Assembly (NCBI GenBank): GCA_000092065.1
Contig: CP000598.1
From: Ostreococcus lucimarinus
Lineage: Eukaryota
Length of the DNA stretch: 64,000 bases
Strand: one strand, 5' to 3'
A program made the position numbers and the translations under genes. The notes beneath the pieces were generated by a model, which ran no database searches, was not told the origin of the DNA, and saw only the letters and a program-made list of their open reading frames with translations. Positions 25,213 to 55,092 of this stretch are shown in pieces; the first letter of the stretch is position 1; every line of letters starts with the position of its first letter.

Positions 25213-25215
25213 TCA

Positions 25216-33366: not shown

Positions 33367-33838
33367 CGTCCGCGGTCGTTCGCGTCGACATAGTTCAAGT
33401 GGTACCCTTGGACGACGGGCCCACCCGTGCGCACCCACGGGTGGGTGAAGTGCGTTTCCGTGGCGCGCCGTCGCCGTTCGGTCCTTCGCGGGCGACCGTA
33501 GCGCAACCGGGCGATCTCCGTGCGGGCGGCGCGACGCGACGCCGGTGCACGCATCGCAAGGGGCACACGCCGGGGGCACGGCGCCATTCGCGGCGAACGG
33601 TACGCCACCACACACGTTCGCAGCGGCGGACGGCATGCGTGGGCGGGTTGGAGGCAACGTTGTATTGAAAATTGCGTACAGCACTGTTGGGCAGACCGGC
33701 TCGTTGAAGCAGCATACGGATCTACGAGCGAAAGCATTTTCTCCGTCGAATATCATAGGGAAACAGCATGATAGATCAGTTGCACGGTCGAATCACAGTG
33801 CTCGAGCATCCTTCAGTTATCATACGTTGAAGGTGAAA

Positions 33839-36800
33839 ATGATTTTAACACTCGTATCCATCGCTATATCCATGGGAAATACACTTGCGAGTGGTAGCAT
33901 AGCGCTCACCGACGCAACGTTTTCTACTGCGATCGCTAGTTGCCTCGAGGAGGCAGCGTCGGATGGCCTGTGTACTTCTTACGGCTTTGCAAGTGGGTTC
34001 GGAGCGATGCCTGATTGGGACACGGGCAATGTCACGAACATGGGTAGTGCATTTTCGTCTAAATACTACTTCAATGCATCCATCGGGAACTGGAACACGT
34101 CGCGAGTGACGTATATGGGTTCCATGTTTCAGTCTGCGTATTCGTTTAATCAGGACATCGGGAACTGGAACACGTCGCAGGTGACGAACATGTATTCCAT
34201 GTTTCAGTCTGCGAATTCGTTTAATCAGGACATCGGGAACTGGAACACGGCGCGAGTGACGTATATGGGTTCCATGTTTCAGTATGCATCTTCGTTTGAT
34301 CAGGACATCGGGGGCTGGAACACGTCGCAGGTGACGAACATGTATTCCATGTTTCAGTATGCGTCTTCGTTTGATCAGGATATCGGGAACTGGAACACGT
34401 CGCGAGTGACGTATATGTATTCCATGTTTCAGGGCGCATCTGCGTTTGATCAGGACATCGGGGGCTGGAACACGTCGCGAGTGACCAATATGGGTTCCAT
34501 GTTTCAGTATGCATCTTCGTTTGATCAGGACATCACAAACTGGAACACGTCGCGAGTGACCAATATGGGTTCCATGTTTCAGTATGCATCTTCGTTTGAT
34601 CAGGACATCACAAACTGGAACACGGCGCGAGTAACGTACATGACCAACATTTTCCAAAACGCGACGGCGTTTCAGGCGAAATATACATGTTCGACCGTTC
34701 AATCTGGACCCATCGCATCGTGTTCGCAGTGCGTTGCAAACTGTGCCGCTTGTAGTAACACTGCGTCGGGTGTTTGTAGTGTTTGCATGACTGGGTACAC
34801 ATTAGACGGAGGAATGTGTGCGGCACCCGCTGCGGCGCTCACCGACGCAACGTTTTCTACTGCGATCGCTAGTTGCCTCGAGGAGGCAGCGTCGGATGGC
34901 CTGTGTACTTCTTACGGCTTTGCAAGTGGGTTCGGAGCGATGCCTGATTGGGACACGGGCAATGTCACGAACATGGGTAGTGCATTTTCGTCTAAATACT
35001 ACTTCAATGCATCCATCGGGAACTGGAACACGTCGCGAGTGACGTATATGGGTTCCATGTTTCAGTCTGCGTATTCGTTTAATCAGGACATCGGGAACTG
35101 GAACACGTCGCAGGTGACGAACATGTATTCCATGTTTCAGTCTGCGAATTCGTTTAATCAGGACATCGGGAACTGGAACACGGCGCGAGTGACGTATATG
35201 GGTTCCATGTTTCAGTATGCATCTTCGTTTGATCAGGACATCGGGGGCTGGAACACGTCGCAGGTGACGAACATGTATTCCATGTTTCAGTATGCGTCTT
35301 CGTTTGATCAGGATATCGGGAACTGGAACACGTCGCGAGTGACGTATATGTATTCCATGTTTCAGGGCGCATCTGCGTTTGATCAGGACATCGGGGGCTG
35401 GAACACGTCGCGAGTGACCAATATGGGTTCCATGTTTCAGTATGCATCTTCGTTTGATCAGGACATCACAAACTGGAACACGTCGCGAGTGACCAATATG
35501 GGTTCCATGTTTCAGTATGCATCTTCGTTTGATCAGGACATCACAAACTGGAACACGGCGCGAGTAACGTACATGACCAACATTTTCCAAAACGCGACGG
35601 CGTTTCAGGCGAAATATACATGTTCGACCGTTCAATCTGGACCCATCGCATCGTGTCGATCGGGGTCACCATTTCAGAATTCGACCGAGTTGAAGCTTGC
35701 GGTCGACAGCTGTTTACTCGCGGATCCAACAGGAAATTGTGATTGCAGAAGTTCTCTGGTCGACTGCCGGGCGGCGAGCGGCGATTCAATATCGAAATGG
35801 GATACACGCTTCGTAACGAATATGAGCTCCTTGTTTGCAGGATCAGATCAATTTAACGCAGATTTAGGTGCTTGGAACACAAGTGCCGTTACTTCGATGT
35901 CGCACATGTTTCATGGAGCCGCTGCGTTCAACAAAGACATTAGTGGTACGTATAATGCGAATATCTTCGCGTGGGACGTGAGCGGCGTGACGGACATGAC
36001 TCGAATGTTCGAAGGCGCTAATAGTTTCGCTCAGGACATCAGCTCGTGGAACGTGGTGAACGTCGCGAGCATGGACAGTATGTTTTCGGGCGCAAACGCG
36101 TTCAACGCGCCCATCGGCAGTTGGAACACAGACGGCGTGACAAACATGTTTCAGATGTTCCACTCAGCACATGTGTTCGATCAACCAATCGGAAGCTGGA
36201 ACACGGAACGGGTGACGAGCATGCAGTGCATGTTCATGTATGCGCGTGAATTCAATCAGGATATCAGCTCCTGGAACACGGTCAACGTGGTAAATATGTG
36301 GGATATGTTTAATAGTGCGGATGCGTTCAACCAGAACATTGGGTTATGGAACACAGAGGAGGTGACGGATATGAGATACATGTTCTATAACGCGGGTGCG
36401 TTCAACCAGCCCATAGGGTCGTGGAACACCGCCAATGTCACGACCATGCGATCTATGTTTCAGGGCGCATCTGCGTTTAATCAGGACATCGGAAACTGGA
36501 ACACGACTTCTGTCACGGACATGTACAGCATGTTTGGTAGCGCGACGGCGTTCAATCAGAACATCACGGGATGGCACACGCCGAATACTGGTATTACTTG
36601 CGATTCATCGCAAACGGCGTGTGGTGATACAGGGTGTTTTGACATCGGTAATTGTGCTGCTGCGATGTTTTCCGGTGCGACAGCTTGGTTAGCGAGGTAT
36701 GCTCGCATGGATGGGAATGCGTCGAGCACCGATGGACCTCCGTCTCAGTGGGTCGGCCCGACACCATTTTTGAGTCGAGACGCTTTAGTCGCGGCGGTTG

Positions 36801-39800
36801 ATAATTGCTTGACCGAGGACGAGACGGGAAGTTGCGATTGCTCTGATTACGACGTCGATTGTGGCGCCGCCGTAAAGCTGCCGATCACGGAATGGGACGT
36901 GAGCCTCATCGTGGATATGAACGAGCTATTTAAGGCTCGAGCAGCTTTCAATCAACCGGTTGGTGTTTGGAACACTAGTAGCGTGACGGATATGAGCGGC
37001 ATGTTTGAGAGCGCATCCGCGTTTAACCAGCCCGTTGGTAACTGGAACACGGGTAGTGTGACGGACATGAGCGGCATGTTTGAGAGCGCATCCGCGTTTA
37101 ACCAGCCCATTGGTAACTGGGCCACGGGCAGTGTGGCGGATATGAGCGGGATGTTTGAGAGCGCATCTGAATTCAATCAGAATATTAGTAGCTGGTCAGT
37201 CGCTTCTGTGGTGAACATGCAATCCATGTTTTCCTCTGCTTCATCCTTCGAGCAAGACATCACTGGATGGATTTCAACTAGTGTCACGACGGACATGGCG
37301 ACGGACATGTTTCTCTCTGCGACAGCTTGGCTGCGAACATTCGCACGCACAGATGGCGAAGACACCCCCCATGGTCCACCATCCGATTGGGGCGAACCGT
37401 GTGGCAATGGGTGGTACGATGAGAAAGTTCAGGGGGAGAAGGAGGATGACTTTTGTGAGCCAAAAGTGAACGGGATTGAAGTGAAAGGATGTGCAGATGA
37501 CTGCAAAGTAAAAACGAACTGGAAGTGCGACAATGTCGACTTGCTACGCCCCGGTGATGACTTCGACAGCTACAATTGTACGTGCGACAACCCGGTGGGC
37601 ACGTATGCATCACCTAATCTTGATAATGATTGTGCTCGCACAGATTGCGTTTATGTCGAACGGTGTCTCGCTAACGGCCTAGGCTGTGCGCCCGGTGCCG
37701 GTGGAATGTGGGACGTGGGACGTGGAACGTGGGACGCGGTGAACGCATGCGGCAAGTGCTTGAGGGCCGCTGATATTGCCGAGCTCCCACTCAACGAACG
37801 AAGTAGGCACAACAAGGCTGGCTATTACAAGACTGGGCAGACGTGCACGGCTTGTCCTGCGACATCAGCCGCGGGACTTTTCGCTGCGGCTGCGGTTGTC
37901 GTCGTCCTCGCTTTTTGTGGTTTCAAAGCCTCTCAATTGATGGGCGCTCAAGCGACGAACAATTTGAAGAAAATTGTCGAGTCGCTGCAGTTCTTCTCTC
38001 TTTCGCTCAGTATGAGTATCAAGTGGCCTGGGCCCGTACTCAATCTCGGTAAATATTTGGAAGCTTTCACGTTCAGCATTGAGTTTCTACGACCCCAATG
38101 CGTCGCTGCGGGGCTGGATTGGCTCAATATATTTTTGTCCTCGGTGTTTGTCGTTCCCGCTCTCATCTTCATAATCATCGTCGTGAACAATAGACGGGCG
38201 AGGCACCGTTACAAAACAACGGTGCGCGCGATCGACAGTGAACGACACGAGGATGGCGAAACGGTCTACTGGATCGAGAAACCAGGGTTCCTGTGGGGTA
38301 CGCGGAGAGCTTACGAGTCCAAGGGCGGAGATAAGATTGTTCGTGAGTTGCAGCGCCAGTATCGGTTTCGAGCCGCGCTTCGATCTTTCGGCGTACTGTC
38401 ACTGACCATCCTGTACCTTCCCATCGTGCGTATGTGCCTTCAGTCATACGATTGCATAAAGATAGACGGCGTGGATGGGCTTCGATTGGAGCATGACATA
38501 GATATCCTCTGTGAAAGCGAAGGGCACGTGATCATCCAGGCCGCCGCCGCGGTGATGTTGGCCATTGTCGGTATCGGCATGCCAATTTACGTCGTTATGC
38601 AAGTTCGTAAGATCCGTTTGAGTGGTAAACTGGATGATCCGCAGACTATCGACTCGTATGGTCCGTTCTACGACGTCTACCGGCGCGAGGAGCTCACACA
38701 TGATCACAAATTGGAGATTGCGAGGATTCGACAAACCGCGGTCGAGTCGTCCTCATTTCGACGAGGCGAAGGCACGAGCGACGAACGTCCTTTCGATGCA
38801 GCAACTGATGATATTGCAGAAGAAATCGCAAATGAAGTCAGGGTCGACACGGAAGAAGATTCAAGCGACGTCGATCGTGTTGACGTCGAGGACGATAGTG
38901 GCACTCCACCACCTCAGAAAGTTTCATCCGGTCTCGGTAAGCTCGCTCGGGCGTTAACGATGACGAAGTCTGCTTTAGGCCGGACGACGTCAGCGAAAGC
39001 GCGCGAACGGGCACATCGAATGCACTGGAAGGACAGGTTCGCGCTTCACTACCTGGCCGTTGAACTAGTGCAGAAGAGTTGCGTCATTTTGACGACGTCT
39101 CCGATAGTGGCCGAAACCGCGGTGAGCGGTTGGGCTCTGGTTGTCGTACACTGGTTTACCGGCGCCTTCGTCTACGTGTGTCAGCCTTGGCGCATCATGA
39201 CGCTCGGCTTCGGCAAATACAAGGTGCGAAATTGCTTGAACAAAGTCGAGTCCTTGGCTGGATTTTTGCAGGGCGTGGGACCGTTCTTGGCAATGATCTT
39301 CCCTGTTCAGAGAAACGAGTTCGGTGAGGTGAAGCAAACTGTGACACTCTCAGCCATAACTGTCCTGCTGACCATCATAATCACCGGGCTGCTTTCTATT
39401 CGTATCATTGTTTTCGTCGGCGAACGCGTCGCCGTCAAACGAAAGAAGATGGATATCGACAAGGATCCCGAGAAATGCATGCAAAATGTTCACAAACAAC
39501 TGGTCAAGCTCGCAACCAACAGAGCGATTGTGAGCATGTTTGCTTTCAAGGCAGATTTCGACATTAAGCGCCGTAAAGCACGCGCGAGGCTGGAAGATAC
39601 TCGCCAAGCGATGTTATCGCGCATCGATATCTTGAAGTCACAACAGACCGACGAGGACCATTCCGATAAAATTACCGCGTTGTACGAAGTGGCGAATGAA
39701 ATGGCACACATCGTGAATACGATCGTACCCCAAGCACCGCCAACAGGTCCAAACGCAGAAGGGTGTATCGAATTGCTGGATGAACAACTGGCATCAATTC

Positions 39801-41368
39801 TCAAGGACGTCGACGTCCGAGCGCAGGCGAACGCGTTAGACGCTCCGAATTCTGCGGCGGTACATATCGTGATGAAGGTCCACGCGTTCGATACAATCAT
39901 ATGTCGACTTGACGAACATTTGCTCGAATTCGCGGCGGCAGAACGTGTGAGTGAGCTCGCCGAGCTGGGTCGAAGACACGCTGAATTACGACATACGCGA
40001 CGTTGTGTCGCGATAGGTTTCGGCGACGCAGAGCTTCGAGCTACTTTCGATGCGCTAAGATCGTGCATCGAGGCACTCCGCCATGCCGTTGAGAACGACG
40101 ACTTCGAAGCTGTATTCACAACTTTCAATGGTGGGAAGGAGATCATTGATTCTCACTTACGATGGTGTCGGGATCAATGTGAATTGTTCAAGAGCGCCGA
40201 GGACGAGCACCCCGATTTCCTCGAGGACGAGCCTCCACTGACGACCGAGTTTTTCAAGGCGACAGTCAAGGTGATACAATCCCATGAAAAGCAACTGTCT
40301 AAATTTAAATCGGAATGTATTCGTAACTGGCCCCCGCTTTTCAAGAACTTTGGCCGCGTCAAGTACATACAAGGCTTTGCTGAGCAACTTCAGAATCAAC
40401 TCCATCTCGATCTCAATGAAAGCACGCCGGAGGAGGCCAAGGCTGTTTTCGATCAGGTGTTGGCCTTCACAGATGGCTTCGCGCTTTGGTGCGGCGATTT
40501 AGTGGCACAGGTCGAAGGCTCAGATGTCTTCATCTTGTTTGAGCCAATCGCCCGCGCGATGGTGGAAAGCTTGAAAGCCATCAGAGCAGACGCTGAGTCG
40601 CAAAGTGCACTCGCGAGGCAAGCATTGAGTACGATAGATTATGTGGTGACGCAACGGGCGTTGGCCGCAACGACGCGGTCGGGCTTGCAGACAGCACTCG
40701 CGGATGGTACGTCTGCGCTTGAAGACCAGCTCGCCGCAGAAATTGCAGACATGGACGCTGCGAAGATTTCTCGAGAGACTACTTTCGAGACCGAAAAGAT
40801 GCGCACCGAGGAAGCTTTGAATACATTAGAGCAAGAGTTGGACGGTAGGCGAGCGGTTTTAGAGGACGACATTCGATCGCAACAGGACACTATCGCGCGG
40901 CTACAAAACTTGAAACGGGAAGAGGCCGCGGCATCGAGCTCTATAAACCCGTTGAAATGGGAGCGTTTCAGTCGAAGCACTGAGCTCGCCGAAGCTGTAA
41001 GTGCACTCCGTATGAGCAAACAAAACTTGAAGAATGAAGAGCTTGCAAATGAGAAGGCCCGCGGGGATGCGCGTAAGGCGGTTCATTCGTTGGAACGGGG
41101 CCTGAAAAAGGACCTGGTCGAATGTGACGTCCGAGCAAAGAAAATCCGAGACGATGTGGCAAAGGAGCTGAAGAAACAAACTATGGATGCTCAGAGGAAG
41201 ACACCCGAAGATGCTAAAGCCCATAAGGCTAGTCTGGCTTCCAGGCGCGCGGTGTTCCAGCAACAACGCGCCGCCGCTAAACTCATCGCGAGCGAAAGTA
41301 GAGAAGCTACGCGAATTCAAGCACAGCTTGCATACTACATGCGAAATTTAAAGGCGCGCGAATCGTGA
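33839..41368 (+). CDS. Giant (about 2500 aa) type I transmembrane protein with the following layout:
- signal peptide ([19 protein letters not shown]);
- about 40 DUF285 (PF03382, 'Mycoplasma lipoprotein'-type, ~26 aa) repeats in four blocks;
- Cys-rich modules;
- a TM/multi-TM region;
- a long cytoplasmic coiled-coil domain that is shared with the gene at 51947-53832.
   Basis: The repeat unit is FQ(Y/S)[14 protein letters not shown](R/Q)VT(N/Y)M(G/Y)SMF. The hydrophobic stretch [17 protein letters not shown] is at about 37.87 kb. The first ATG in frame with a signal peptide is at 33839. Confidence 0.75.
33902..35767 (+). repeat. Perfect in-frame tandem duplication: two units of 933 bp (311 aa). 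Bases 33902-34723 are identical to 34835-35656, and each unit encodes 10 DUF285 repeats.
   Basis: Read directly. The antisense ORFs at 33845-34702 and 34802-35635 translate identically over 277 aa. Confidence 0.8.
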
Positions 41369-41702
41369 TATAACGGTCGACTACGAGGAATACACGCATA
41401 GTCGAAACATGAGCACCCTGTCGCAGAAGGAGCTGAGTTTCCGCTTCGTTACGGATGAGATTGTGCGAGAAGACATGCCACATTCAAATTCGGGGCGATG
41501 GCTCACAAATCAGGCAAGAGAAGACAGGTGCACGTGCAAACTCTCAGCGGAACGAGTTGGTCGTCTCGAAGATCTCGGTGTTTGGTGAGACCAAGCCGAC
41601 GCACAGGAGGAGCACTTCGATGCCTGGAGGTACAGAAGATGTAACTCATCTTAAGCGTACGACTATTCAGACCTTGGGGGTTCCGCTTAAGATTTCTTCG
41701 GA

Positions 41703-42020
41703 ATGGAATCTCTGAACGCAAGGCGTGGATGTACATTAAACCATGAACGAGGCGGGCCACGGTTCGATTTTTTGGATTACAAGTGTAGGTCTACTTTTAC
41801 GTTTCGTGGACTCTGCTTGAGTCGGCCGATGTCACCATGTCAGTCAGGTGCTTCGAGTGCACTAGAGACGTGACCGCCCATACACAGGACGTCGAGCTCG
41901 GCGTGCCTGATTTCACGACTCGGCGACCATGGTTTGAAACCGAAATGACCATCGGCTTCAGGCCCAGGCGCGGCCGCAATGCTACTTTAAACTTAATATT
42001 TTTTTTTTGAAAAAAGAGTA
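41703..42020. repeat. Dispersed repeat of about 310 bp, with a second copy at 48395-48703. It ends in a T10/A6 tract and is flanked by taagat(t/c)tcttc(a/g)gaa. It is absent from the otherwise homologous position at ~54130.
   Basis: The two copies are about 93% identical over ~300 bp. The site is empty in the paralogous segment. Confidence 0.45.
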
Positions 42021-42227
42021 GTAAGAGTAATAAAAATAAACTTTTTTTTGTTTGAGTTGGGGCACCCCAACATGATAAAACCGCACATCGCGGCGAGCCG
42101 CGCGACGACGATCACTTCGGTCACATTTCCAGTCAGTGATTCTCGTCGTGTGATTCATCGTGTTTGACGTCGACGTTGATGTACCACATGTAAGATCTCT
42201 TCAGAACCAATCGTGTGAGTGAAGTGT

Positions 42228-42725
42228 TCAGGCCAAGTCGCGTAACTCATCTAGCGTAAATTGATACTTGTCGAGACTGCGCTTTGAAGGCAGCGTGCCA
42301 CGCGCTCGAGCATTCTTGAGGCACGTCTTACGCAGTATTCTTTTCGCGTGCTGCTTGTAATAATTGAGTTGTCTGTAGTTACCATCGCCGCCGTCACGCT
42401 TCGGCGTATATTGGGCTCTGCTGTAGGCTTGACTCTCGTCCACGTTCTCGTGACACGCGTGTTTCTGGCTGCGTCCAGCAGCTCGGGAGTTGAATAAGCC
42501 GTCGCGCTTCTCTCTCATGTATGCACTTTTACGTTGATGGAGCTCTCCAGCTGGAATGTCCTTTTCGAGAACTCTCACGTCCGCGTCGCCAAACGTGAAG
42601 ATTGGATGTCGTGCGTATTTATGCGAGGCAAGGCGCGCTCTGAGCGAACCTGTCGTCGATCCGATGTACGTTTTGTCACATTTCGCATTATCGCTAAACA
42701 TTTCGTACACGCACCCCGTAGGCAT
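42228..42725 (-). CDS. Standalone GIY-YIG family nuclease (homing-endonuclease-like), 165 aa, copy A.
   Basis: GCVYEMFSDNAKCDKTYIGSTTGSLRARLASHKY gives GIY-(11)-YIG, then Arg, then His. The catalytic Glu/Asn context MREKRDGLFNS is present, and there is a basic C-terminal tail. The ATG was verified. Confidence 0.7.
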   Translation of the reverse strand: MPTGCVYEMFSDNAKCDKTYIGSTTGSLRARLASHKYARHPIFTFGDADVRVLEKDIPAGELHQRKSAYMREKRDGLFNSRAAGRSQKHACHENVDESQAYSRAQYTPKRDGGDGNYRQLNYYKQHAKRILRKTCLKNARARGTLPSKRSLDKYQFTLDELRDLA

Positions 42726-43150
42726 TTGTCCTGGTTACCTATCCATCCCTAAGAAAATATTGTTGCCTCCTCCTGCGGTTTGCAGTCACATTCGAGAGAC
42801 CATAGGTACTCGTGTCGCTGCGTGGGGTGCAAGGTCCGGGGTGTAGATATCGAACCGCCTGATTTCACACCTGGACGTTCGTGATCCGACGAGACCTGAC
42901 GAAATGACGAACTTGTTTTGTCGTCCCCAAATTCGTCAGCCCGTCGTTCGGTCACACTTTGTGTGTACCAATGATGAAAATGACGAAATGTTAAAATATT
43001 TTAATGTTTATTTTTATTTTAGATCTATGACAAGCAACAGTGTAGACCTTTATGAAAACAGTTCGTCATTCGTCATTTCGTCAGGATCCAAACCATGGTC
43101 TTTTCGGTGTCTTGTTGAGTCTTCATATTGCAAATGTACGAATCACAAAA

Positions 43151-43669
43151 TTAGTATGAACACCAGACGACCGCCGGCGCGAGCTCCGTCTCCCCCGTGT
43201 ACCCATTGTTCTTCAGCCACTCGAAGCACCCGTCGCGGTCAATTTCCCAATAGACGCCCTTCTCGTCCCTACCTTGCCTCAGGTGGTCCTCTTCCATTGG
43301 GATCCTGTGGCCCTTTTCCTTCTTGAAGAAGTCCTTGAGCTTATTGCCGACCTTCGTCGCGCTATCTTGTCCACGCGCAGCCGCTGGCAACCACGTCTGG
43401 TATTCGATGAAGATGTCACTGTTGCGGATTTTATTTCCAACCCACTTCTCAGGGAATTCAACAGTGACGCAATGCTCAAACCATCGAGTGAACTTGGGCA
43501 TGCAGCCACGCTTCATTTCCGAATACGCGTCGGTCGTAGGTCTCGTGCGCTCCACATGATAACCGGTACGGAGAAGTTTATATTTATTAATTAAAGACTC
43601 GCGCGTGTTGGCGCTAAATGATTTTATTGCTGCCGAGAGACTCAAGTTTGGCCGTCGTTTGAGTCGCAT
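43151..43669 (-). CDS. Hypothetical 172-aa basic protein encoded next to the GIY-YIG gene (copy A).
   Basis: The first ATG is at 43669 (the tracked start is TTG). I recognise no family. It has motifs such as KFTRWFEHCV and GVYWEIDRDG. Confidence 0.45.
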   Translation of the reverse strand: MRLKRRPNLSLSAAIKSFSANTRESLINKYKLLRTGYHVERTRPTTDAYSEMKRGCMPKFTRWFEHCVTVEFPEKWVGNKIRNSDIFIEYQTWLPAAARGQDSATKVGNKLKDFFKKEKGHRIPMEEDHLRQGRDEKGVYWEIDRDGCFEWLKNNGYTGETELAPAVVWCSY

Positions 43670-43746
43670 CGATGGGTCGCGCCCGCCGATATAACGCCGG
43701 CGTTTCGGACACGATCTTGAAAACAAGCACTGGTTGACTTGATTGA

Positions 43747-46272
43747 TTAGGAAACCTTATCCGTGCCTTTTACGCTGAGCCCGGTCATGGACGGCTTCGT
43801 CGGCATGGTGAACGCGGTGTAGTCCGCCGCCGTGGGCACCGTGATGCTCGTGTCGTACGACATCCCGGAGCACGCCGACGCATCGGCGGGAGCAAGCATT
43901 TCGACACCACTTTCGAGTTTCAAGACGTACCGGTCGCCAGTCGATGGTTGTTTGAACGTGGTGCCATCGGGGATCAGGACATCCGGACGGCGATGGTAAC
44001 CATTGTTGTCGTCGCACTCCTCGTTGCCATACTGGTCGACCTCGGGCGCCGCGCGCGAACCAGTCATCGGATTGAAGCAAATGAACGGCGCGTCGCCCAA
44101 CCAACCGCCTTCGTAACGCACGTTGAGATTCACCCCGGAGTAGTCGGTACCGGATGGAGAGCGCAGCAACACGGCGTCCGTGGGTATCTTGCCTTGAAGC
44201 TGGAGAGGCGCATCCATGAACTTCTTTGACGCGGAGTCCGAAGGATCTTCGAGCCACGCCATGCCCTCCCAATTGCTTGAGCTCCACTCGTAGTGCACAT
44301 CCAATTTGTTGGGTTCCTCGCAAACGTCGGTAGTGGCGGTGCAACTCAAAGTGTCGAGGTTCGCAGGTGTAGCTTCGAAGAGAACCATATGAACTTCTCC
44401 CGAGTCAAAGAATGAGTTGGTTGGGTCCATTACGACTTCAGCGCCGAGGGTGCCGGAAACGTCTTCCTTCAACGAGCCGGTATCTTTGTCGAAGACGTAC
44501 TTTTTATAAGTGCTTCGAGCGTCGTTGTATCCGTTCGGCGAGCCGTAGAACTGGCTGTCGTGACTGCTCGCACTCGATAGCTTCGTCTGGTCGATACACC
44601 GCTCGCCGCACGTGAGTGCGAGGTGGCTGCTGAGCGACCCAGGGGGGACGGTTTGCGCGTCAGACACTTTGAAGTGCGTCAGGTTAAGCAAACTCGCAGA
44701 GCCTCGGCCGAAGATGCTTCCCCAGCAGCGTATGATTTGGTTGTCAATGTCAGCCATCGTGAGCGCACGCGGAGTCGTGATTGAGTTCGTGTTCAGCGAT
44801 CCACCGTTCCAAGTTCGCTTCGACGACAACACGAGTGCGTTCGCGTCGGAGTCATACCTGAACTTGACCTCAACTTCTGCAGCGTTAGTGTCATCCCAGA
44901 ACCAGCCTGTGATCGTCGCCCCTTGGTAGTCGCTTGCGCTTCGCACCGTCGCCGTGAACTTGTACAACACCCCGCGTGAGACTTTGAGCCTCTTGTTCAC
45001 GTTCAGTATCGGATCATCCCAATCGACAATTTCCTCTACTACGTTCCCGTCGGTGAACGCGGTTTGAGCGATAGTCTTCTCGGCGGTACTGAGCGCGGTG
45101 TCGGAAATGTAGTCGTAATCGGAAATGTAGAGATTGCCCGGATAGTGCAGATCAGCATTATACGTCTTGCCGTCGCTGCCTGTAGCCTGAAGATGCACGT
45201 AGCTTTGAAGGTTCACCTTCGCCCCGTTGCTGTCGTACGCGCCGTAGCGCTCACCGAAGAACGATCTGTTCTCGAGTTCATCGCAGAATGACTGCCCGTA
45301 CGCCTTCGTCTTGACGAGCGTAGCGGTAGTCACCAATTGACCCGCTTGTGTCGAACCATTATCAAAGTCGATGGTCTGGAAAGAGGCCTTCGTGATGTCG
45401 TTTTCTGCGCGCGATTTAGCACCCGCGGTGAATGAATTGCTGCCTCGTGTCACCTCTTCCCACCACGTGACCCCGGTCGCCGTGCAATCCGAATCCGCGT
45501 CGGTGGTTTCGCACTCGCGACGAACCACACCTTTGATGCGTTGGGACGCGGTCGAGCCAGTCGGCGATTGGTACGTAAAGGTAAAGTTTTTCACCAAGAT
45601 TTTGTCAGACTTGATGGCGACGTCATCGCGCTTGACGATCATTTCCGTGTCGATGTTCGGCATTTCTGGGGTATCGCTGAGGGCTACCCAGACGTTCGTC
45701 TTGAAATCACGGGTATCGCTCGCGTCGTCGATGTCTGGGCCCGTGGCGTTGACGACCCAACGGTACGTAACCTTACCCTTGATTCGGTCGCCGTCGCTGT
45801 TGTCACAGTGGAAAGGATCGATCTCAGCGATGTATGGGCCAGTGTTCAGGTTCGCCGTCCAGTTCACCGAGGCGACGTAGCAAAGAACCATGTTTGGTAT
45901 CTGGAAAATTTCGGTACTTACAGCGTCGACGAACGTCTCCGCCGGCGGCGCCGTGGCGTAGTCGGACGTCGAAGAGAACGAAGACACTTCGAGAGGCGTC
46001 ACCTCGACGAGCGAACGACCATCGATTCGAGACGAACCAGAAGACGTCGTCGAAACACCCTCTGACGGGATCATGGTGACTTTACGCGGCGTCAACGCCG
46101 CCTTGAGCGCGTTCGTCTTCGCCGCGCCCGACAGCCCGCTGACGGTGGTCGGGGTCGGGGCCGGGGCCGGGGTCGCGTCGTCATCCCTGAGCCCGATGCC
46201 GAGGCCGGTGCCAAGGGCGACCACCACGGCGGCGACACCAACGATCGCGATCGCAACGCCACGTCTCACCAT
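43747..46272 (-). CDS. Protein of about 841 aa anchored by a signal anchor or N-terminal TM segment. It has a (TPAP)n linker and a large Ser/Thr/Asp/Trp-rich ectodomain. Copy A.
   Basis: The ATG was verified. The N-terminus reads VAIAIVGVAAVVVALGTGLGIGL. I recognise no catalytic motif. Confidence 0.55.
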   Translation of the reverse strand: MVRRGVAIAIVGVAAVVVALGTGLGIGLRDDDATPAPAPTPTTVSGLSGAAKTNALKAALTPRKVTMIPSEGVSTTSSGSSRIDGRSLVEVTPLEVSSFSSTSDYATAPPAETFVDAVSTEIFQIPNMVLCYVASVNWTANLNTGPYIAEIDPFHCDNSDGDRIKGKVTYRWVVNATGPDIDDASDTRDFKTNVWVALSDTPEMPNIDTEMIVKRDDVAIKSDKILVKNFTFTYQSPTGSTASQRIKGVVRRECETTDADSDCTATGVTWWEEVTRGSNSFTAGAKSRAENDITKASFQTIDFDNGSTQAGQLVTTATLVKTKAYGQSFCDELENRSFFGERYGAYDSNGAKVNLQSYVHLQATGSDGKTYNADLHYPGNLYISDYDYISDTALSTAEKTIAQTAFTDGNVVEEIVDWDDPILNVNKRLKVSRGVLYKFTATVRSASDYQGATITGWFWDDTNAAEVEVKFRYDSDANALVLSSKRTWNGGSLNTNSITTPRALTMADIDNQIIRCWGSIFGRGSASLLNLTHFKVSDAQTVPPGSLSSHLALTCGERCIDQTKLSSASSHDSQFYGSPNGYNDARSTYKKYVFDKDTGSLKEDVSGTLGAEVVMDPTNSFFDSGEVHMVLFEATPANLDTLSCTATTDVCEEPNKLDVHYEWSSSNWEGMAWLEDPSDSASKKFMDAPLQLQGKIPTDAVLLRSPSGTDYSGVNLNVRYEGGWLGDAPFICFNPMTGSRAAPEVDQYGNEECDDNNGYHRRPDVLIPDGTTFKQPSTGDRYVLKLESGVEMLAPADASACSGMSYDTSITVPTAADYTAFTMPTKPSMTGLSVKGTDKVS

Positions 46273-46409
46273 CGTCGCGCGTTGAAATGCGGCGACGACA
46301 AGTGGCGACGGTGACGCGATCTGCCCGCACGCAATTCAATTCCTTCGGGTCACCTTATCTTTTGGAGCCCCCGGAAACGCGACTGTTTACCAATACGATG
46401 GTTCCCGGG

Positions 46410-46950
46410 TATTGATTACTGGGCCTGTTGGCGCCCCGCGGGTGTGTGTGTGCCAGCCCGTAGGGTTTAAGGTTTAGGATCCGAAATATGGAGCCTCGCT
46501 ATTAAGCCGGGGATCCTCCGCGGGCACGCGCCCCCGCGGGCGTGTGTGTTTTCGCGGTCGGTCGGACGGGAAGCCTGTTGGCGCCCCACGGGTTTGTGTG
46601 TCGGTCCTTAGCGTTTGGGGTTTAGTATCGGACATACGGAGCCTCACTATTTAGCGGTATGACCACATATATTAATTGATTTATACCATTCATCCCGCGC
46701 ATAAAATCGGGTAGATTACTGTACAGTAATCTACCCGACTTTATGCGCGGGATGAATGGCATAAATCCCATAGTATATGGGGACCGGACCGGCGGGACGT
46801 GTGATTTTTTACCGTAGGGGTCATGATTGGTCGTTCGGGGGTACTCGTATGAAATAATGAAACACCATACTTTTATTTACATTTTGGTTTATTAAAAAAA
46901 CCCGTACGTGCATTTACTACAGAATTGACCACTTTTCGCGCGGGTTTCAC
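46410..46950. repeat. Dispersed intergenic repeat with a related copy at ~49440-50040. It contains the perfect palindrome ttactgtacagtaa (28 bp in copy 1: cgggtagattactgtacagtaatctacccg) and gggtttag-type motifs.
   Basis: Aligned directly. The two copies are related but diverged. Confidence 0.4.
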
Positions 46951-47065
46951 CAGAAAGCTTCAAAAATCGTGCCTTTTCTAAAACTCAATTTTCGCTAGGG
47001 TTTAGCGCCCCCGGTTTTCCGAGGATGCGGGCAGATCTCGCCGTCGGCGCCACTCGTCGACGACC
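46951..47065 (+). promoter_or_regulatory. Conserved upstream module (copy 2 of 4), ending at the ATG of the gene at 47066.
   Basis: It reads ...ctagggtttagcgcccccggttttccgaggatgcgggcagatctcgccgtcggcgccactcgtcgacgacc|ATG. Confidence 0.45.
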
Positions 47066-48181
47066 ATGGCCTCCCCGTCGCTCGATGCCGTGCGTTGGAG
47101 CGAATACCGGGCGCTCATGCAAGCGTGGGAAGCGTTTAACCCACACAGGGAGCTCCTGCGTCGGTTTTTACAGAAGCAATCGCACACGGAGCAGTGCCCA
47201 CCCGGCGTCCCGTACGTACCAGATCTGCCGGAGCCGGAGTACTTCGCCGTGAAGAGACGAATCGAGGCCGGGGAAACCGTTCCATGTCCTGGATTCTTAC
47301 GCGAACGCGACAACCGGCGCAATCAATGCCGCTGCGGGGCTCCACTCAGAGTTGATGACACTGGCAATATCTCCTGCACTTCCAAAATTCCCCGTCATGA
47401 GAACTATGGTCCTGTACCTCGTTGCTGTTGCTGGGCCGAAGAAGAGCACGCTCGTAACCAACGACATGACATGCCGCCGTATATTTTAAGGCCGCCACCC
47501 ATAGTGTCCCCCCCTCAAGTACCACCGTCGTCTCAAGTGCTCTTGAGCTTTTTGGAGGGGGTCAGGCCAAGCATGAACGCCAACTACCTGCGATGCGTTC
47601 AAGACATAGACGAAGAGCTCGCTCGTCTGAATGAGCAGCTTGCGGACAACAGCATTTCAACGACGAGGCGTGAAGCGATTCAACAGCATATAGTGAGCGA
47701 ACGCTCCAAACTTGAGGCCAAAGACACACAGTTACAAGATTTTTTTAACACGACGACCGCACTGGCAGAATCCGTGCACACGTTCGAGCACAGAGTGGCA
47801 GAGAAATACCAGAAAGCTGTGGATGCATACATTAAAGCGCAACTGGATGAAGTGGTCGTACCTCCGGATAGTAGAGGGAATCCAAAGTTTAAGGACTCAG
47901 TCGATGGCATCGACAGAGAGTTGGCCAAGTTAGAATCAGAAAATGGAGGCATCTCCAACGACAGCGCTCGCGCTCGCGTCGCCTCCAAACGTAAGAGCGT
48001 GGAAGAGTGTGAATCAGAGCACAAGCGCCTCAAAACCACTTCGGTTGAGTACAACTTGTCTATTTTGAAAGGGAGTTTGGAAAAAGACAAATCTATGTCT
48101 GCTGAAGACAAAAGACGCTGGGAATGCGTCATAAACGCCGTCGGGTTGTTACGAGCAAACGATGCACCAAGAACGCCGTAG
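47066..48181 (+). CDS. Hypothetical coiled-coil protein, family member A (371 aa).
   Basis: The ATG was verified. It is paralogous to the gene at 50177-51220 (YLRCVQDIDEELARLNEQLADNSISTTRREAIQQHI versus YLRTVERIDKNIQVLEAQLQDENISETRRSVIPQHI). Confidence 0.55.
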   Translation: MASPSLDAVRWSEYRALMQAWEAFNPHRELLRRFLQKQSHTEQCPPGVPYVPDLPEPEYFAVKRRIEAGETVPCPGFLRERDNRRNQCRCGAPLRVDDTGNISCTSKIPRHENYGPVPRCCCWAEEEHARNQRHDMPPYILRPPPIVSPPQVPPSSQVLLSFLEGVRPSMNANYLRCVQDIDEELARLNEQLADNSISTTRREAIQQHIVSERSKLEAKDTQLQDFFNTTTALAESVHTFEHRVAEKYQKAVDAYIKAQLDEVVVPPDSRGNPKFKDSVDGIDRELAKLESENGGISNDSARARVASKRKSVEECESEHKRLKTTSVEYNLSILKGSLEKDKSMSAEDKRRWECVINAVGLLRANDAPRTP

Positions 48182-48756
48182 CAACAGTATGGGCAAACAG
48201 TTAGGCGTTCTCCATGGCCTCCATTCGCGCGACCAGAGCGTTGACGCGCTCTTCGAGTTCGTCGATGCGGCGTTGTTTAGCGTCGTTCGCGCTCTCTACA
48301 TCGGCGCGACATAGAATAACGATAATCTATATCTGCTATATCTGCTTAATATTCTGCTTAAGATTTCGGCACCCTCGCTTAAGATCTCTTCAGAATGGAA
48401 TCTCTGAATGCAAGGCGTGGATGTACATTAAACCATGAACGGACCACGGTTCGATTTTTTTTATTACAAGTGTAGGTCTACTTTTACGTTTGGTGGACTC
48501 CGCTTGAGTCGGCCGATGTCACCGTGTCAGGTGTTCAGAGTGCACTAGAGACGTGACCGCCGATACACAGGGCGTCGAGCTCGGCGTGCCTGATTTCACG
48601 ACTCGGCGACCATGATTTGAAACCGAAATGACCATCGGCTTCAGGCCCAGGCGCGGCCGCAATGCTACTTTAAACTTAATATTTTTTTTTTGAAAAAAGA
48701 GTACTATAGTACTTTTGGTGTTTAAACGTGTTCGTGATATGATTGATAGTCCGTGA

Positions 48757-50009: not shown

Positions 50010-50176
50010 TAGGGTTTAGAAATTAGGGTTTAGACGTCAAAAATCGCTCGGGTTCCATCAGAAACGTGTCAAAAACGGGCCTTTTCTGAAACTCGATTTT
50101 TGCTAGGGTTTAGCGCCCCCGGTTTTCCGAGGATGCGGGCAGAGCTCGCCGTCGGAGCCACTCGTCGCCGCACACG
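50010..50176 (+). promoter_or_regulatory. Conserved upstream module (copy 3 of 4), including tagggtttagaaattagggtttagac.
   Basis: It aligns with the other three copies and ends at the ATG at 50177. Confidence 0.45.
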
Positions 50177-51220
50177 ATGACCGATTCAGTCGCGCACGCC
50201 TCACCGACATGGAGAACGTACTCATTAAACCCGTCGCTGCAACCGGACTGGATGAACGGCACGGCGGAGGTAGAGGCGGTCAAAACAGCGGAGGATGATC
50301 TCGAGCGCTCGTACAAGAACAAGCCGTTCTTCAAGGACGCAAGCTACGAGGCATTCGCCAGACAACGAGACGAGTATGACAAACCGACGCCCGACGGCCT
50401 CGAGGAGTTCAAGCGCATCTTACGGTCGAATTATCTTCGCACCGTAGAGCGCATCGATAAAAATATCCAAGTTCTGGAAGCCCAGCTACAAGACGAGAAT
50501 ATCTCTGAAACGCGACGGTCGGTTATCCCGCAGCACATCGAGGACACTCGTGCGAAATTAAAAGAGCAAGACAATTCATTGAACGCGCTGTGCGCCGATG
50601 TGGATGCGGTTATCGCAGATTTGAAAGGCTTGCCCGATAAAATTGCCGACATTAAAGAGCGCGCCTCTGAACAACTTCAGCGACACAAAAGAAAAAGGAC
50701 TAATGCATCTTTGGAACGCAACCTCGAGGAGTTGAGCGATGCGTTGCGCAGCTACGAGGCGAAAAAAGAACAGGAGAGGCTCACCCTTTGTGAACACCAA
50801 ATTCGCCAACAGAATCTGCCATTGTCCCAGTATGTTCGCTACTCAGGGGGAGGAGTTATCGACGTTGTTCATCCTGTGGGTGTCATCGGCTGCGATGGTA
50901 GTAACCTCAGCGTTGATGGTCGTGGTGGTCGTGGTGGTCGTGGTGGTCGTGGTGGTCGTGGTGATCGTGTTCTTTCGGTTAATCGTCAACGTTACTTTGA
51001 AGTGCCACAATGGCGGCCTGAATGGGGACCTGAGAAGCAATTTTGTGCGTGCAAGAGCTTCCAAGAATGGTACAAAGTCGACGCCGGAGACCTTCTTTAC
51101 AGCGCGCTTCGTGGCGTAGAGGGCGCGCTAAAGGCGCTCAGTGGTTCGGGAGATGACACCTCTTCGCTTCGACGGCGCTTGGGCGATGCCAATTTGGACG
51201 AGGCAAGCACAGGGAGTTAA
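50177..51220 (+). CDS. Hypothetical coiled-coil protein, family member B (347 aa), with a (RGG)5 tract encoded by a (ggtcgtggt)n microsatellite.
   Basis: The ATG was verified. It is paralogous to the gene at 47066. Confidence 0.55.
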   Translation: MTDSVAHASPTWRTYSLNPSLQPDWMNGTAEVEAVKTAEDDLERSYKNKPFFKDASYEAFARQRDEYDKPTPDGLEEFKRILRSNYLRTVERIDKNIQVLEAQLQDENISETRRSVIPQHIEDTRAKLKEQDNSLNALCADVDAVIADLKGLPDKIADIKERASEQLQRHKRKRTNASLERNLEELSDALRSYEAKKEQERLTLCEHQIRQQNLPLSQYVRYSGGGVIDVVHPVGVIGCDGSNLSVDGRGGRGGRGGRGGRGDRVLSVNRQRYFEVPQWRPEWGPEKQFCACKSFQEWYKVDAGDLLYSALRGVEGALKALSGSGDDTSSLRRRLGDANLDEASTGS

Positions 51221-51755: not shown

Positions 51756-51946
51756 ATCTAGGGTTTAGAAATTAGGGTTTAGACATCAAAAATCGCCGAG
51801 GTTCCATCAGAAAGTTGTCAAAAACGTGGCTTTTCTAAAACTCGATTTTTACTAGGGTTTAGCGACCTCCGGTTTTTCGGCGGAGGAATTGCGTGCGGGC
51901 AGATCTCGTCGTTGTCGCCACTCGTCGACGCGGCGATGCTCTCAAC
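51756..51946 (+). promoter_or_regulatory. Conserved upstream module (copy 4 of 4).
   Basis: It aligns with the other copies. Confidence 0.45.
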
Positions 51947-53832
51947 ATGGCAAAGGTGAAGATAATGCTAATATTGTCGATGGTGTTGATACTGCGCATG
52001 CCGAGCGCACTCGCAGGCGCACTCACACACGCACTCCTCCGTGTGGGTGGTCCACGTGTAAGGCAAGCTGTCGAAAAAGGGATGAAACAAGGCATTATGG
52101 ATTCGTTTCCAGGAGGCGTCCAGGACCTCCTCGCATACTTGCACCGCCACAGAGAGGACGAAATCAAACAGGAGTTTGGGTGCATGGCGCTCATGATCAT
52201 GTGCCGGGAAAACACTGAGAACAGACGCATCGCCGGAGAGCAGGGCGCGATCCAGGCCGTCGTGAACGCCTTGAACCGCCACAGAGAGAACAAGGAAGTG
52301 CAGAGGGACGGACACATGGCGCTCGTGATCATGTGCGAGGACAACACCGAGAACAGACGCATCGCCGGAGAGCAGGGCGCGATCCAGGCCGTCGTGGACG
52401 CCTTGAACCGCCACAGAGGGAACAGGGAAGTGCAGAGGGACGGACAACTGGCGCTCGCGATCATGTGCAAGGACAACACTGAGAACAGACGCATCGCCGG
52501 AGAGCAGGGCGCGATCCAGACCGTCGTGGACGCCTTGAACCGCCACAGAGGGAACAGGGAAGTGCAGAGGGACGGACAACTGGCGCTCGCGATCATGTGC
52601 AAGGACAACACTGAGAACAGACGCATCGCCGGAGAGCAGGGCGCGATCCAGACCGTCGTGGACGCCTTGAACCGCCACAGAGGGAACAAGGAAGTCCAGG
52701 CGAACGGGCACATGGCGCTCGCGAGCATGTGCATTAACAACACTGAGAACAGACGCATCGTAGACGCGTATGGGCAAACAGTTAGTTATTCTCCACAGCC
52801 TCCATTCGCGCGACCAGAGCGTTGAAGGACAGCGGGCGCAGTGATGATGCGCAAATAAACGCACTGTACGCGATTGCAAACGAGATGGCGCACGCTGTGA
52901 ACATGATCTCGATTCAAGGTGTCGCTGAAGGCCCGGGCGTTGAAGAACGAGTAAAACACACACAAGATTTCCTACAGCAACTTTTGTCGGACGTCGACAT
53001 CAAACTTGAGATCGAAGAAAAGCAAAACGCCGAGGCTCTGCGTGTGGTATTGCGAGTGCACGCGTATGGTCGTGCCATGAAAATTATCGAGGATCACATG
53101 CTAGAATATGCGCGCGCTGAACAAGTGGAGGAGCTGGCCGTGCTCGGACAAGAATCTGCGGCACTGTTAGAAGAACAAAACCTCCTTTCCATGGGTTTTG
53201 GCGTCAAGGAGCTGAATATGTCGATACTGGCAATCGACGCGGAGCATTTCACTGTGCACCTAGAGAAAGCTACTTCCCTGGACGAAGTCGGCAGTGCTGT
53301 GGCCATTCTCAACGCCGTCAATTCCATTGCAGTCCGTCATCTCGAGTGGAGAGATGCGAGCGTTGCAACTTTTAGCCACCTTGAAACCGAAGAGTCCATT
53401 GGTATTGAAGTCAAAATCAACAGGGACGTACTATATTCTGCTGCGATGCTTCTGAAAGATCACGAATCCCAGCTGAACCAAGAACTGGCGAGGCGCGCGC
53501 GCGAATGGAAGCTTCTGTTTAAGAATTTTGGAAAAGTGAAATTCAACCAGACGCTTGAAGAAATGGTTCAGGTGGAGCTCACCTCGCCTGAAGGCGCGGA
53601 CGCTGATTTAACACGCCGTGCTAAAAAATTTGTGGATTGGTGCGTGGAATCTTCACAGCAGCTGAGCCGAGGGGAGTTTAACCAGCGTCTTCCTGGGATT
53701 ACGGAAACGGCATATATCAGCCTAAAATCCCTCGCACAGAAGTCTGCCAGTTCGCTCGTTAAGATCGCACAAAAAACAGCTGCATCGAGGCGTAGCAAAA
53801 CAAAGACGTCAATATTCGGGTTTGCGCGCTAA
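51947..53832 (+). CDS. Armadillo-repeat protein (five or six 42-aa ARM units, three near-identical) joined to a C-terminal domain homologous to the cytoplasmic tail of the giant DUF285 protein. The two reading frames are broken near 52768-52825, either by a 50-nt intron (52768-52817, GT..AG) or by a frameshift.
   Basis: The ARM units read ENRRIAGEQGAIQAVVDALNRHRGNREVQRDGQLALAIMCKDNT. The downstream ORF has NALYAIANEMAHAV...LRVHAYG, matching [15 protein letters not shown]...MKVHAFD in the giant protein. Confidence 0.45.
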
Positions 53833-54161
53833 ATCCGCCAACCGAACGCCAGAATTGTTATGTTACGCTCGATGATAACATGGTTGGGTTGGGGCAAATG
53901 CCCACAAATCAGCGTCAGGCGAAGGAAGACAGGTGCGTCTGCAAATTCCAAATTCTCGGCAGAACAAGTTCGTCGACTGGAAGAGCTCGGCCGGTTTGGA
54001 GACAAACCCGCCATATTGGAAGAGCACTTCGCTGCCTGAGGGTACAGAAGATGTAGCTAATCAGAAGCGTGCGACCGTTAAGACCTTGGGGATTCGACTC
54101 GCTTAAGATTTCGGCACCCTCGCTTAAGATTTCTCCAGAACGAATCGTGTGAGTGAAGTGG

Positions 54162-54659
54162 TCAAGCCAAGCCACGCAACTCATCTACCGTAAATTGATA
54201 CTTGTCGAGACTGCGCTTCGAAGGCAGCGTGCCGCGCGCTCGAGCATTCTTGAGGCACGTCTTACGCAGTATTCTTTTCGCTTGCTGCTTGTAATAACTG
54301 AGTTGTCTGTAGTTACCATCGCCGCCGACCCGCTTCGGCGTATATTGAGCTCTGCTGTAGGCCGGACTCCCGTCCACGTTCTCGTGGCACGCGTGTTTCT
54401 GGCTGCGTCCAGCAACTCGGGAGTTGAATAAGCCGTCGCGCTTCTCTCTCATGTAGGCACTTTTACGTTGATGGAGCTCTCCAGCTGGAATGTCCTTTTC
54501 GAGAACTCTCACGTCCGCGTCGCCAAACTTGAAGATTGGATGTCGTGCGTATTTATGCGAGGCAAGGCGCGCTCTGAGCGAACCTGTCGTCGATCCGATG
54601 TACGTCTTGTTACATTTCGCATTATCGCTAAACATTTCGTACACGCATCCCGACGGCAT
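54162..54659 (-). CDS. GIY-YIG nuclease, copy B.
   Basis: Near-identical to copy A; the ATG was verified. Confidence 0.7.
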   Translation of the reverse strand: MPSGCVYEMFSDNAKCNKTYIGSTTGSLRARLASHKYARHPIFKFGDADVRVLEKDIPAGELHQRKSAYMREKRDGLFNSRVAGRSQKHACHENVDGSPAYSRAQYTPKRVGGDGNYRQLSYYKQQAKRILRKTCLKNARARGTLPSKRSLDKYQFTVDELRGLA

Positions 54660-55092
54660 TTGTCCTGATTACCTATCCATCCCTAAGAAAATATTGTTGC
54701 CAAAAGTGCTCCTCCTGTGGTTTGCAGTCACATTCGAGAGACCATAGGTACTCGTGTCGCTGCGTGGGGTGCAAGGTCCGGGGTGTAGATATCGAACCGC
54801 CTGATTTCACACCTGGACGTTCGTGATCCGACGAGACCTGACGAAATGACGAACTTGTTTTGTCGTCCCCAAATTCGTCAGCCCGTCGTTCGGTCACACT
54901 TTGTGTGTACCAATGATGAAAATGACGAAATGTTAAAATATTTTAATGTTTATTTTTATTTTAGATCTATGACAAGCAACAGTGTAGACCTTTATGAAAA
55001 CAGTTCGTCATTCGTCATTTCGTCAGGATCCAAACCATGGTCTTTTCGGTGTCTTGTTGAGTCTTCATATTGCAAATGTACGAATCACAAAA

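Follow-up and report, generated by a model that had tools for sequence, protein, structure and literature searches.

The locus considered here raises the question of whether a small, free-standing nuclease gene has carried its surroundings from one chromosomal site to another. It lies in a window of 64,000 nucleotides (nt) from Ostreococcus lucimarinus (assembly GCA_000092065.1, contig CP000598.1), in which a 4.2-kb segment occurs twice. The first-pass annotation had assigned three genes to this segment, encoding a GIY-YIG nuclease of 165 amino acids (aa), a basic protein of 172 aa, and a membrane-anchored protein of ~840 aa, and had regarded the whole as a candidate mobile unit associated with a homing endonuclease, its near-identity being due to recent duplication, gene conversion, or active mobility. 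Duplication or conversion holds up, whereas endonuclease-driven mobility of the 4.2-kb cassette is not supported. It seems likely that a segment containing a host gene was duplicated or gene-converted, and that its GIY-YIG part underwent ectopic conversion with dispersed copies of the same gene. The window is part of chromosome 18 of O. lucimarinus CCE9901, the small outlier chromosome (SOC) of this species: the record holding the window proteins measures 149,386 bp, and the published SOC of O. lucimarinus is chromosome 18, with 149 kb and 53% GC (PMC3491373, Table 2). Duplications, deletions, and translocations are frequent on the SOCs of Mamiellales (PMC13390643). The rest of the window, with genes for sugar-modifying enzymes, glycosyltransferases, a nucleotide-sugar transporter, and methyltransferases and with a copia-type retrotransposon, has a content that fits the SOC assignment; a tRNA scan of the window returned no tRNA gene.

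Self-comparison of the window by blastn reported one long direct repeat, 42191-46406 (copy 1, site 1) against 54125-58353 (copy 2, site 2), both on the minus strand and 98.8% identical over 4230 columns with 35 mismatches and three gap openings. The annotated repeat (42191-46407 and 54125-58353) is therefore real, and all three open reading frames (ORFs) are present in it. An identity above 99%, as had been claimed, applies only to part of its length. The ~3.6 kb from 42777 to 46406, which comprise the gene for the 841/843-aa protein and a helicase remnant, differ between the copies by five single-nucleotide polymorphisms (SNPs) and two indels (~99.8% identity), and 43506-46367 contains no SNP at all and a single 6-nt indel. 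In the 586 nt from 42191 to 42776, which hold the GIY-YIG gene, the copies are about 95% identical, being separated by 30 SNPs and one indel of 8 nt, and the change from ~100% to ~95% falls at 42776-42808. Farther left, an ORF flanking copy 2 (52822-53832, plus strand) aligns at 29% identity (E 2e-36) with the C-terminal region of a 2607-aa protein encoded at 33545-41368, and 41537-41696 matches 53949-54112 at 78% in the same self-comparison. The homology between the two sites thus runs past the left coordinate of the annotated repeat into paralogous flanking genes, and inter-site identity rises in steps from 29% (protein) through 78% and 95% to 99.8%. The contrast between near-identical copies and diverged paralogous flanks, pointed out in the annotation, is borne out. 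An endonuclease gene that homes is expected to be conserved at least as well as its flanks; here no other part of the repeat is conserved so poorly (~95% against ~99.8% for the adjacent 3.6 kb), and a near-identical tract that excludes the GIY-YIG gene is the reverse of the homing expectation. Inverted repeats of at least 100 nt were not found between 36 and 64 kb of the window.

Is the 165-aa protein a GIY-YIG nuclease? Its two copies, XP_001422332.1 (42228-42725, minus strand) and XP_001422336.1 (54162-54659, minus strand), share 155 of 165 residues and are named 'GIY-YIG domain-containing protein' in UniProt. Direct searches were of little help: none of the three cassette proteins matched Pfam at E<=0.1, the window protein missing the GIY-YIG model; neither the 165-aa nor the 172-aa protein matched PHROGs; and a sequence search of the PDB with the GIY profile gave nothing useful. 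A profile search retrieved 978 relatives at E<=1e-3 among 1.8 billion representatives, and PF01541 was matched by 52 of 64 sampled relatives (best E 1.5e-10). The AlphaFold2 model, with a predicted local distance difference test score (pLDDT) of 85, found the catalytic domain of I-TevI (1LN0) as its top PDB match in Foldseek (probability 0.99; template-modelling score 0.55 on the target); the matches ranked next were UvrC N-terminal domains and Slx1. Taken together, the relatives, their PF01541 matches, and the modelled structure confirm the GIY-YIG fold, so that the annotated identity stands at the fold level. Like I-TevI and the T4 Seg proteins, i.e., phage and giant-virus homing endonucleases of the free-standing GIY-YIG type, the protein has the N-terminal fold of ~95 residues and is encoded by a small stand-alone intergenic ORF next to the replication gene of a selfish element. 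In contrast to these enzymes, its C-terminal half is helical, and no DNA-binding module was recognised there, although no test was aimed at one.

The active site departs from the 'textbook' GIY-(11 aa)-YIG...R...H...E...N arrangement previously ascribed to it. The motif reads CVY-(12 aa)-YIG...R31...H35...N79, in which five of the six residues of the catalytic set (Y7, Y20, R31, H35, and N79) are kept. The sixth, a glutamate in 59 of the 64 sampled relatives, is Lys66 in both window copies. An hhalign comparison of the family with I-TevI (E 1.3e-6) places this column at E75, which in I-TevI is a metal ligand. Lysine occupies the position in all 26 copies read at >=85% identity, and glutamate is found in relatives at 63% and 49% identity. 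Exchange of a metal-binding glutamate for lysine makes canonical cleavage improbable, and the 165-aa protein, judged from its sequence, probably lacks the canonical DNA-cleavage mechanism. The reading frame is nevertheless intact in nearly all copies, with pairwise dN/dS values of 0.2-0.5, and this purifying selection indicates that the protein still does something.

The largest gene of the repeat is difficult to reconcile with a role as cargo of a mobile unit. It encodes 841 aa in copy 1 (XP_001422333.1; 43747-46272, minus strand) and 843 aa in copy 2 (XP_001422338.1; 55689-58220, minus strand), a Pro-Ala insertion being the sole difference, and an N-terminal hydrophobic segment is present in each, as annotated. 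Homologs that cover its full length are between 49% and 93% identical to it. The most distant of them, an ortholog at 49%, resides on a 401-kb contig among genes for a TFIID 18-kDa subunit, BCCIP, a SNARE, and a P-type ATPase, and neither GIY-YIG nor helicase sequence was found in its vicinity. Among the related contigs compared with the window, metagenomic ones included (designated by L and a number), two (L003 and L004) carry the 841-aa-type gene without GIY-YIG or helicase sequence, and a third (L005; gene 91% identical) carries it with a GIY-less remnant. Given this range of homologs and the housekeeping neighbours of the 49% ortholog, in whose surroundings element genes are lacking, the 841-aa gene is, on comparative grounds, a conserved cellular gene and not the cargo of an element. 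Its product is predicted to be anchored in the membrane by its N-terminus and to have an ectodomain rich in beta structure; an AlphaFold2 model built from a 13-sequence alignment was unusable (mean pLDDT 43).

The 172-aa basic protein is not a gene of the cassette in its own right either. The ORF at 43151-43726 (minus strand; 191 aa, or 172 aa from its own ATG) contains at 43154-43549 the codons for aa 602-733 of a 733-aa protein, with the counterpart in copy 2 at 55096-55491 (both minus strand), and this part is 97.7% identical to L006:7374-9575 (tblastn). The 733-aa protein is encoded in L002 and in the long Ostreococcus contigs L006-L011, intact in L002 and L006. It comprises a PrimPol domain (PF09250) and a D5-like superfamily 3 (SF3) helicase domain (PF19263) with the Walker A sequence GVQGTGKGT; its Cys motifs suggest a Zn-finger-like region. 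Among solved structures, the primase-polymerase/helicase of phage NrS-1 (PDB 6K9E/6K9C) comes closest to the parent helicase domain, the match being restricted to the ATPase core (6K9E, aa 405-557, E 2e-12). In contrast, the window keeps just the C-terminal 132 codons, downstream of that core, and no other part of the helicase. Since the primase domain with its DxD/sxH motifs and the ATPase core with Walker A/B are absent and only aa 602-733 can be aligned, the 172-aa ORF is a truncated helicase remnant.

The parent element from which this remnant derives consists of the helicase gene followed by the GIY-YIG gene, which starts 425 nt downstream of the intact helicase in L002 and L006. The spacing in the window is the same, and the spacer at 42726-43150 (minus strand) is collinear with L006 9576-10000. 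Element homology in the window ends at 43543, and L001 and L002, to which GIY-YIG homologs had led, match the window solely from 42170 to 43543. The junction peptide RT|RPTTDAY, at which helicase codon 602 is joined to unrelated sequence, is common to the window and L005 and must therefore be old. In L005, the helicase stump is of another element subtype, being 97% identical to L016, and genes other than GIY-YIG come after it, which indicates that ectopic gene conversion has replaced the stump in one lineage or more. The two-gene unit is multi-copy. In public data it amounts to about 600-900 sequences per 90%-identity cluster (601 for the helicase and 898 for GIY-YIG), as compared with 84-340 for single-copy host genes of the window, and it occurs in at least nine downstream contexts. 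The synteny is kept in L017, where the GIY-YIG protein is 49% identical and an additional 434-aa gene lies between the two. The view that the GIY-YIG gene comes from a mobile element is thus partly right: it belongs to a multi-copy unit derived from a selfish element, but the giant-virus relatives for which the annotation had proposed a check were not found.

Does this parent element have the ends of a transposon? Its upstream homology extends between 0 and 440 nt past L006 7231, depending on the copy, and downstream, at distances that range from ~20 to ~650 nt after the stop codon, homology gives out in at least nine contexts. Constant termini with target-site duplications did not emerge, the 5′ and 3′ homology ends being ragged and varying among more than 20 related loci. 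A sharp 5′ end at L006 7231 was considered and rejected, because other copies have 60-440 nt more upstream in common, and no terminal repeats were found around L006 beyond short arms at chance level. Most helicase-GIY loci lie 0.3-14 kb from contig ends; a subtelomeric location was not established, telomere repeats having been found in none of the fetched loci.

Elements with this gene order, referred to as type A, differ from a type-B relative (L016 12687-16411; L005 4024-6919), in which the homologous helicase is followed by genes for 308, 141, 374, 163, and 210 aa and not by GIY-YIG. The 308-aa protein gave a sub-threshold match (E 9e-4) to the TNP-like (P-element/THAP9) RNase H N-terminal domain and is possibly a transposase. 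Distant relatives have a gene between helicase and GIY-YIG (L017 2400-3704; L018 192-1764). A tyrosine-recombinase-like signature, R...(R/K)H...HS..T..Y, noticed by eye at the C-terminus of its product (434 aa in L017), was unsupported by Pfam, the PDB, and PHROGs and serves as a lead only. The 39-kb contig L001 carries a frameshifted helicase-GIY copy; nearby ORFs at 5608-5976 and 11702-12112 show GmrSD_C and weak EcoRI-methylase matches, and several ORFs encode ankyrin repeats. Such restriction-modification-like content is unusual for a contig of a picoeukaryote.

The gene content of the parent element suggests a further origin, namely that helicase and GIY-YIG come from an endogenous virus (a prasinovirus, a virophage, or a polinton-like virus) of which they are a fragment, the cassette being the edge of a decayed provirus. 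The combination of PrimPol/TVpol plus superfamily 3 helicase (S3H) with GIY-YIG characterises virophages and polinton-like viruses and also Tlr1 (Yutin, Raoult & Koonin 2013, PMC3671162). As in those sets, both modules are linked and multi-copy in the nuclear genome of a protist. A 32% helicase homolog on the compact 16.8-kb contig L015 (43% GC, many genes of unknown function) points in the same direction, as does the helicase-GIY synteny down to 49% identity with the 434-aa gene between. However, neither terminal inverted repeats nor defined ends were detected in the Ostreococcus element, and its GIY-YIG domain is fused neither to a Zn-ribbon nor to a helicase. Searches of the window, the type-A neighbourhoods, and L015/L016 with Pfam and PHROGs revealed no major or minor capsid, packaging ATPase, or maturation protease gene, although such capsids often escape profile searches. 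IMG/VR scans with the GIY-YIG alignment, the helicase, and a 20-sequence helicase alignment returned weak PrimPol-domain matches and no other relatives, and the GC content of the element (50-53%) is near that of the window itself. A viral origin is accordingly a minority view, to be given about one chance in five.

The boundaries of the repeat bear most directly on how it arose. At site 1, the element continues to the left of the annotated start: element 3′ sequence of the L002 type occupies 41959-42090 (minus strand), an insertion of 79 nt (42091-42169) lying between it and the GIY unit, and a more distal part of the element 3′ region at 41612-41735 (minus strand; 69% to L006 11005-11148) overlaps the 78% repeat of 41537-41696 and 53949-54112. 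At site 2, the distal 3′ region is found at 54021-54140 (minus strand; 82.5% to L006 11037-11151), the stretch L006 11037-11151 continuing at 54140-54021, where it is joined to the GIY unit of copy 2 by a deletion of ~0.5 kb. The left edge of copy 2 at 54125 is this deletion, located between short direct repeats inside the element 3′ region; a sharp 3′ element end at the annotated left coordinate, which was also considered, is rejected for that reason. The right end of copy 2 is fused directly to a duplicate of 28654-29641 (58354-59158, plus strand; 97-98.5% identity), with no evident microhomology at the junction. That duplicate is a second recent duplication in its own right, GC-rich (62-65%) and starting exactly where copy 2 ends. 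Site 1 is the ancestral site, since its right flank (46407-46509) recurs in L005 and L024. L024 is a metagenomic (wild) allele of site 1, in which the 841-aa gene and the remnant are 99.5-100% identical to the window, and L031 matches the left flank of the site 1 GIY-YIG gene. A collapsed or mis-joined repeat in the assembly, which nothing specific favours, can practically be dismissed: there are 30 SNPs in the GIY part, the flanks differ between the copies, both protein pairs are separate GenBank entries, and L024 and L031 support site 1.

That the three-gene cassette was spread as a unit by a free-standing GIY-YIG homing endonuclease is very improbable in the light of these findings. The repeat is real and recent, the fold is real, and GIY-YIG genes are multi-copy, all of which would suit that explanation. 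However, the complete cassette was found solely at site 1, site 2, and the orthologous wild allele L024, and the cellular gene is found in L003/L004 and L005 without its supposed vehicle. The catalytic glutamate is replaced, and copy 2 ends on one side in a deletion breakpoint and on the other in a junction to another duplicated segment. In contrast to loci of free-standing homing endonucleases, the GIY-YIG gene of the window has no clean presence/absence site, and the co-conversion pattern is reversed. What was found is largely what the first-pass annotation had itself named as evidence against mobility, namely copies within larger segmental duplications lacking site-specific boundaries.

Why, then, is the GIY-YIG segment more diverged than the rest of the repeat? 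The genes fall into two sub-lineages, alpha, with copy 1, L014, and L006, and beta, with copy 2, L007b, and L002. The synonymous divergence (dS) is 0.129 between the two window genes, 0.087 between copy 1 and L006, and 0.086 between copy 2 and L010b, so that by this measure each window gene is closer to copies elsewhere than to the other window copy. In L024, the gene is a mosaic whose 5′ part is alpha-like and whose 3′ part is beta-like. One explanation is that a GIY module of ~0.59 kb, beginning about 55 nt ahead of the ATG and ending about 35 nt beyond the stop codon, is itself a discrete mobile or homing unit that arrived next to the helicase remnant independently at both sites, by replacement or insertion, which would place alpha and beta versions at identical positions. 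This view draws on a solo GIY-YIG copy in L007/L009/L010, devoid of helicase and situated between unrelated genes, whose 5′ end is no farther than about 10-40 nt from the point where the identity between copies 1 and 2 switches and whose 3′ end lies no more than 5 nt from the left edge of copy 2. Intact ORFs under constraint (dN/dS 0.2-0.5) in at least nine contexts, and the lack of GIY-YIG after the homologous helicase in type B and L005, would also be expected of such a unit. However, L035 and L038 represent the same locus as the solo copy, which leaves a single independent solo context. Moreover, a donor that shares only the module restricts conversion to the module, so that ordinary ectopic conversion from a module-only donor should produce identical boundaries. 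The 3′ limit falls on the short direct repeat behind the copy 2 deletion, other copies end at many different points, and Lys66 stands in place of the catalytic glutamate. Empty and filled alleles with precise boundaries are lacking: the GIY-less relatives (L016 and L005) diverge from type A 130 nt before the module and continue into unrelated genes. An autonomous module is therefore regarded as unlikely, its chances lying somewhat below those of a viral origin.

The preferred explanation, duplication or conversion of a host-gene segment followed by ectopic exchange among GIY-YIG copies, can be laid out as follows. In an old event, a multi-copy selfish PrimPol/D5-like SF3 helicase-GIY element became joined 3′ of the cellular 841-aa gene, with the helicase cut at codon 602. 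Later, by a mechanism and at a time that can be reconstructed only tentatively, the block comprising element 3′ region, GIY-YIG gene, helicase remnant, and 841-aa gene came to be present twice at a distance of 12 kb, beside old paralogous genes. Site 1 is the ancestral copy, and site 2 a patchwork that also carries the copy of 28654-29641. The near-identical 3.6 kb would reflect recent duplication or gene conversion between the copies, of the kind seen on SOCs, and the GIY segments, 5% diverged and of two sub-lineages, would owe their pattern to repeated ectopic conversion with dispersed copies. The GIY-YIG protein has kept its fold and probably some role, with doubtful activity, and shows no sign of having moved the cassette. 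Several observations weigh against this account. Both ends of the solo copy fall close to boundaries seen at the window sites; the annotated GIY-YIG proteins of O. lucimarinus number three, which is a lower bound on copy number (the third, XP_001421474.1, is encoded on a 708,927-bp chromosome); the loss of activity is deduced from the Glu-to-Lys exchange; and a single genome does not distinguish recent duplication from old duplication with subsequent homogenisation.

The duplication itself is ordinary for an SOC. It lies on the SOC, its flanks are paralogous, and further duplicated segments adjoin it at junctions of patchwork type. The repeat resembles the segmental duplications of the O. tauri (chromosome 19), O. 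lucimarinus (chromosome 18), and O. mediterraneus SOCs in its location, in being recent and of kilobase scale with patchwork junctions and no obvious microhomology, and in the glycosyltransferase, sugar-modifying, and repeat-rich surface-protein genes around it. It differs from the duplications observed in experimental lines, which are mostly larger than 10 kb or form tandem 'accordion' arrays of ~1.8 kb (PMC13390643), in that it is a dispersed duplicate of 4.2-4.9 kb, located 12 kb from its source.

Other features of the window were recorded alongside the repeat. A Ty1/copia-type long terminal repeat (LTR) retrotransposon at 21024-26754 has a 1310-aa pol ORF (RVT_2 and rve) with a 392-aa ORF upstream of it; its LTRs (21024-21199 and 26579-26754) measure 176 nt each and are 100% identical, and it sits in a low-GC stretch (44-46%, 18-28 kb), which together suggest recent insertion. 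The 2607-aa ORF at 33545-41368 contains many DUF285/BspA-like repeats of ~25 residues ('NWNTS.VT.M..MF'), a transmembrane region, and a long coiled-coil tail, and includes a perfect internal duplication of 822 nt (33902-34723 = 34835-35656). At 52053-52844, 132-nt units are arranged in tandem, the central copies being 91-95% identical; the array encodes a 44-residue armadillo/HEAT-like repeat ('NTENRRIAGEQGAIQAVVDALNRHR...') and lies directly upstream of the ORF paralogous to the 2607-aa tail. Between the copies of the 4.2-kb repeat, the genes at 47066-48181 and 50177-51220 are weak paralogs (34% over 89 aa, in a coiled-coil region), so that the 7.7-kb spacer is itself made of old duplications. 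A dispersed repeat of ~330 nt (41684-42020 and 48376-48703, 93.5% identical) adjoins copy 1 and is also present in the metagenome contig L002 (6920-7257, 85-92%). Directly upstream of several genes lies a motif of ~50-90 nt, 'TTCCTTCGG..CCCCGGAAACGC..AAACCCTAG', which probably explains several short dispersed repeats of the region. A promoter-like instance containing AAACCCTA is located upstream of the 841-aa gene (46292-46337, no strand assigned) and recurs at 58240-58285, 46985-47052, 50093-50171, and 51842-51910, as well as at L006 11507-11592. The AAACCCTA core resembles the telo-box promoter element of plants.

What is new at this locus is the multi-copy family of elements combining a PrimPol-SF3 helicase with GIY-YIG in Ostreococcus, together with the clade-wide exchange of Glu for Lys. 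A full-text literature search on Ostreococcus GIY-YIG proteins, subtelomeric helicases, and polinton-like elements yielded no description of the family or of the exchange, and the family appears to be undescribed so far. A clade-wide Glu-to-Lys change under purifying selection offers a case of a non-canonical GIY-YIG mechanism or of a repurposed nuclease. A bolder proposal, quite improbable at present, is that Ostreococcus maintains the PrimPol-helicase/GIY-YIG(K66) pair as a two-gene system, with an enrichment of copies towards chromosome ends and on its 'viral immunity' SOC. In such a system, the Glu-less GIY-YIG protein, under purifying selection in every copy, might be a DNA-binding, recombination-promoting, or antiviral factor, and the homology of the dispersed copies would drive SOC rearrangements, among them the doubling of genes for surface proteins, of which the 841-aa protein is one. 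Independently of that proposal, the surface-anchored 841-aa protein, duplicated on a chromosome with a link to virus resistance, is a candidate whose copy number may affect susceptibility to prasinoviruses, and the element family could provide dispersed homology for the rearrangements behind SOC hypervariability.

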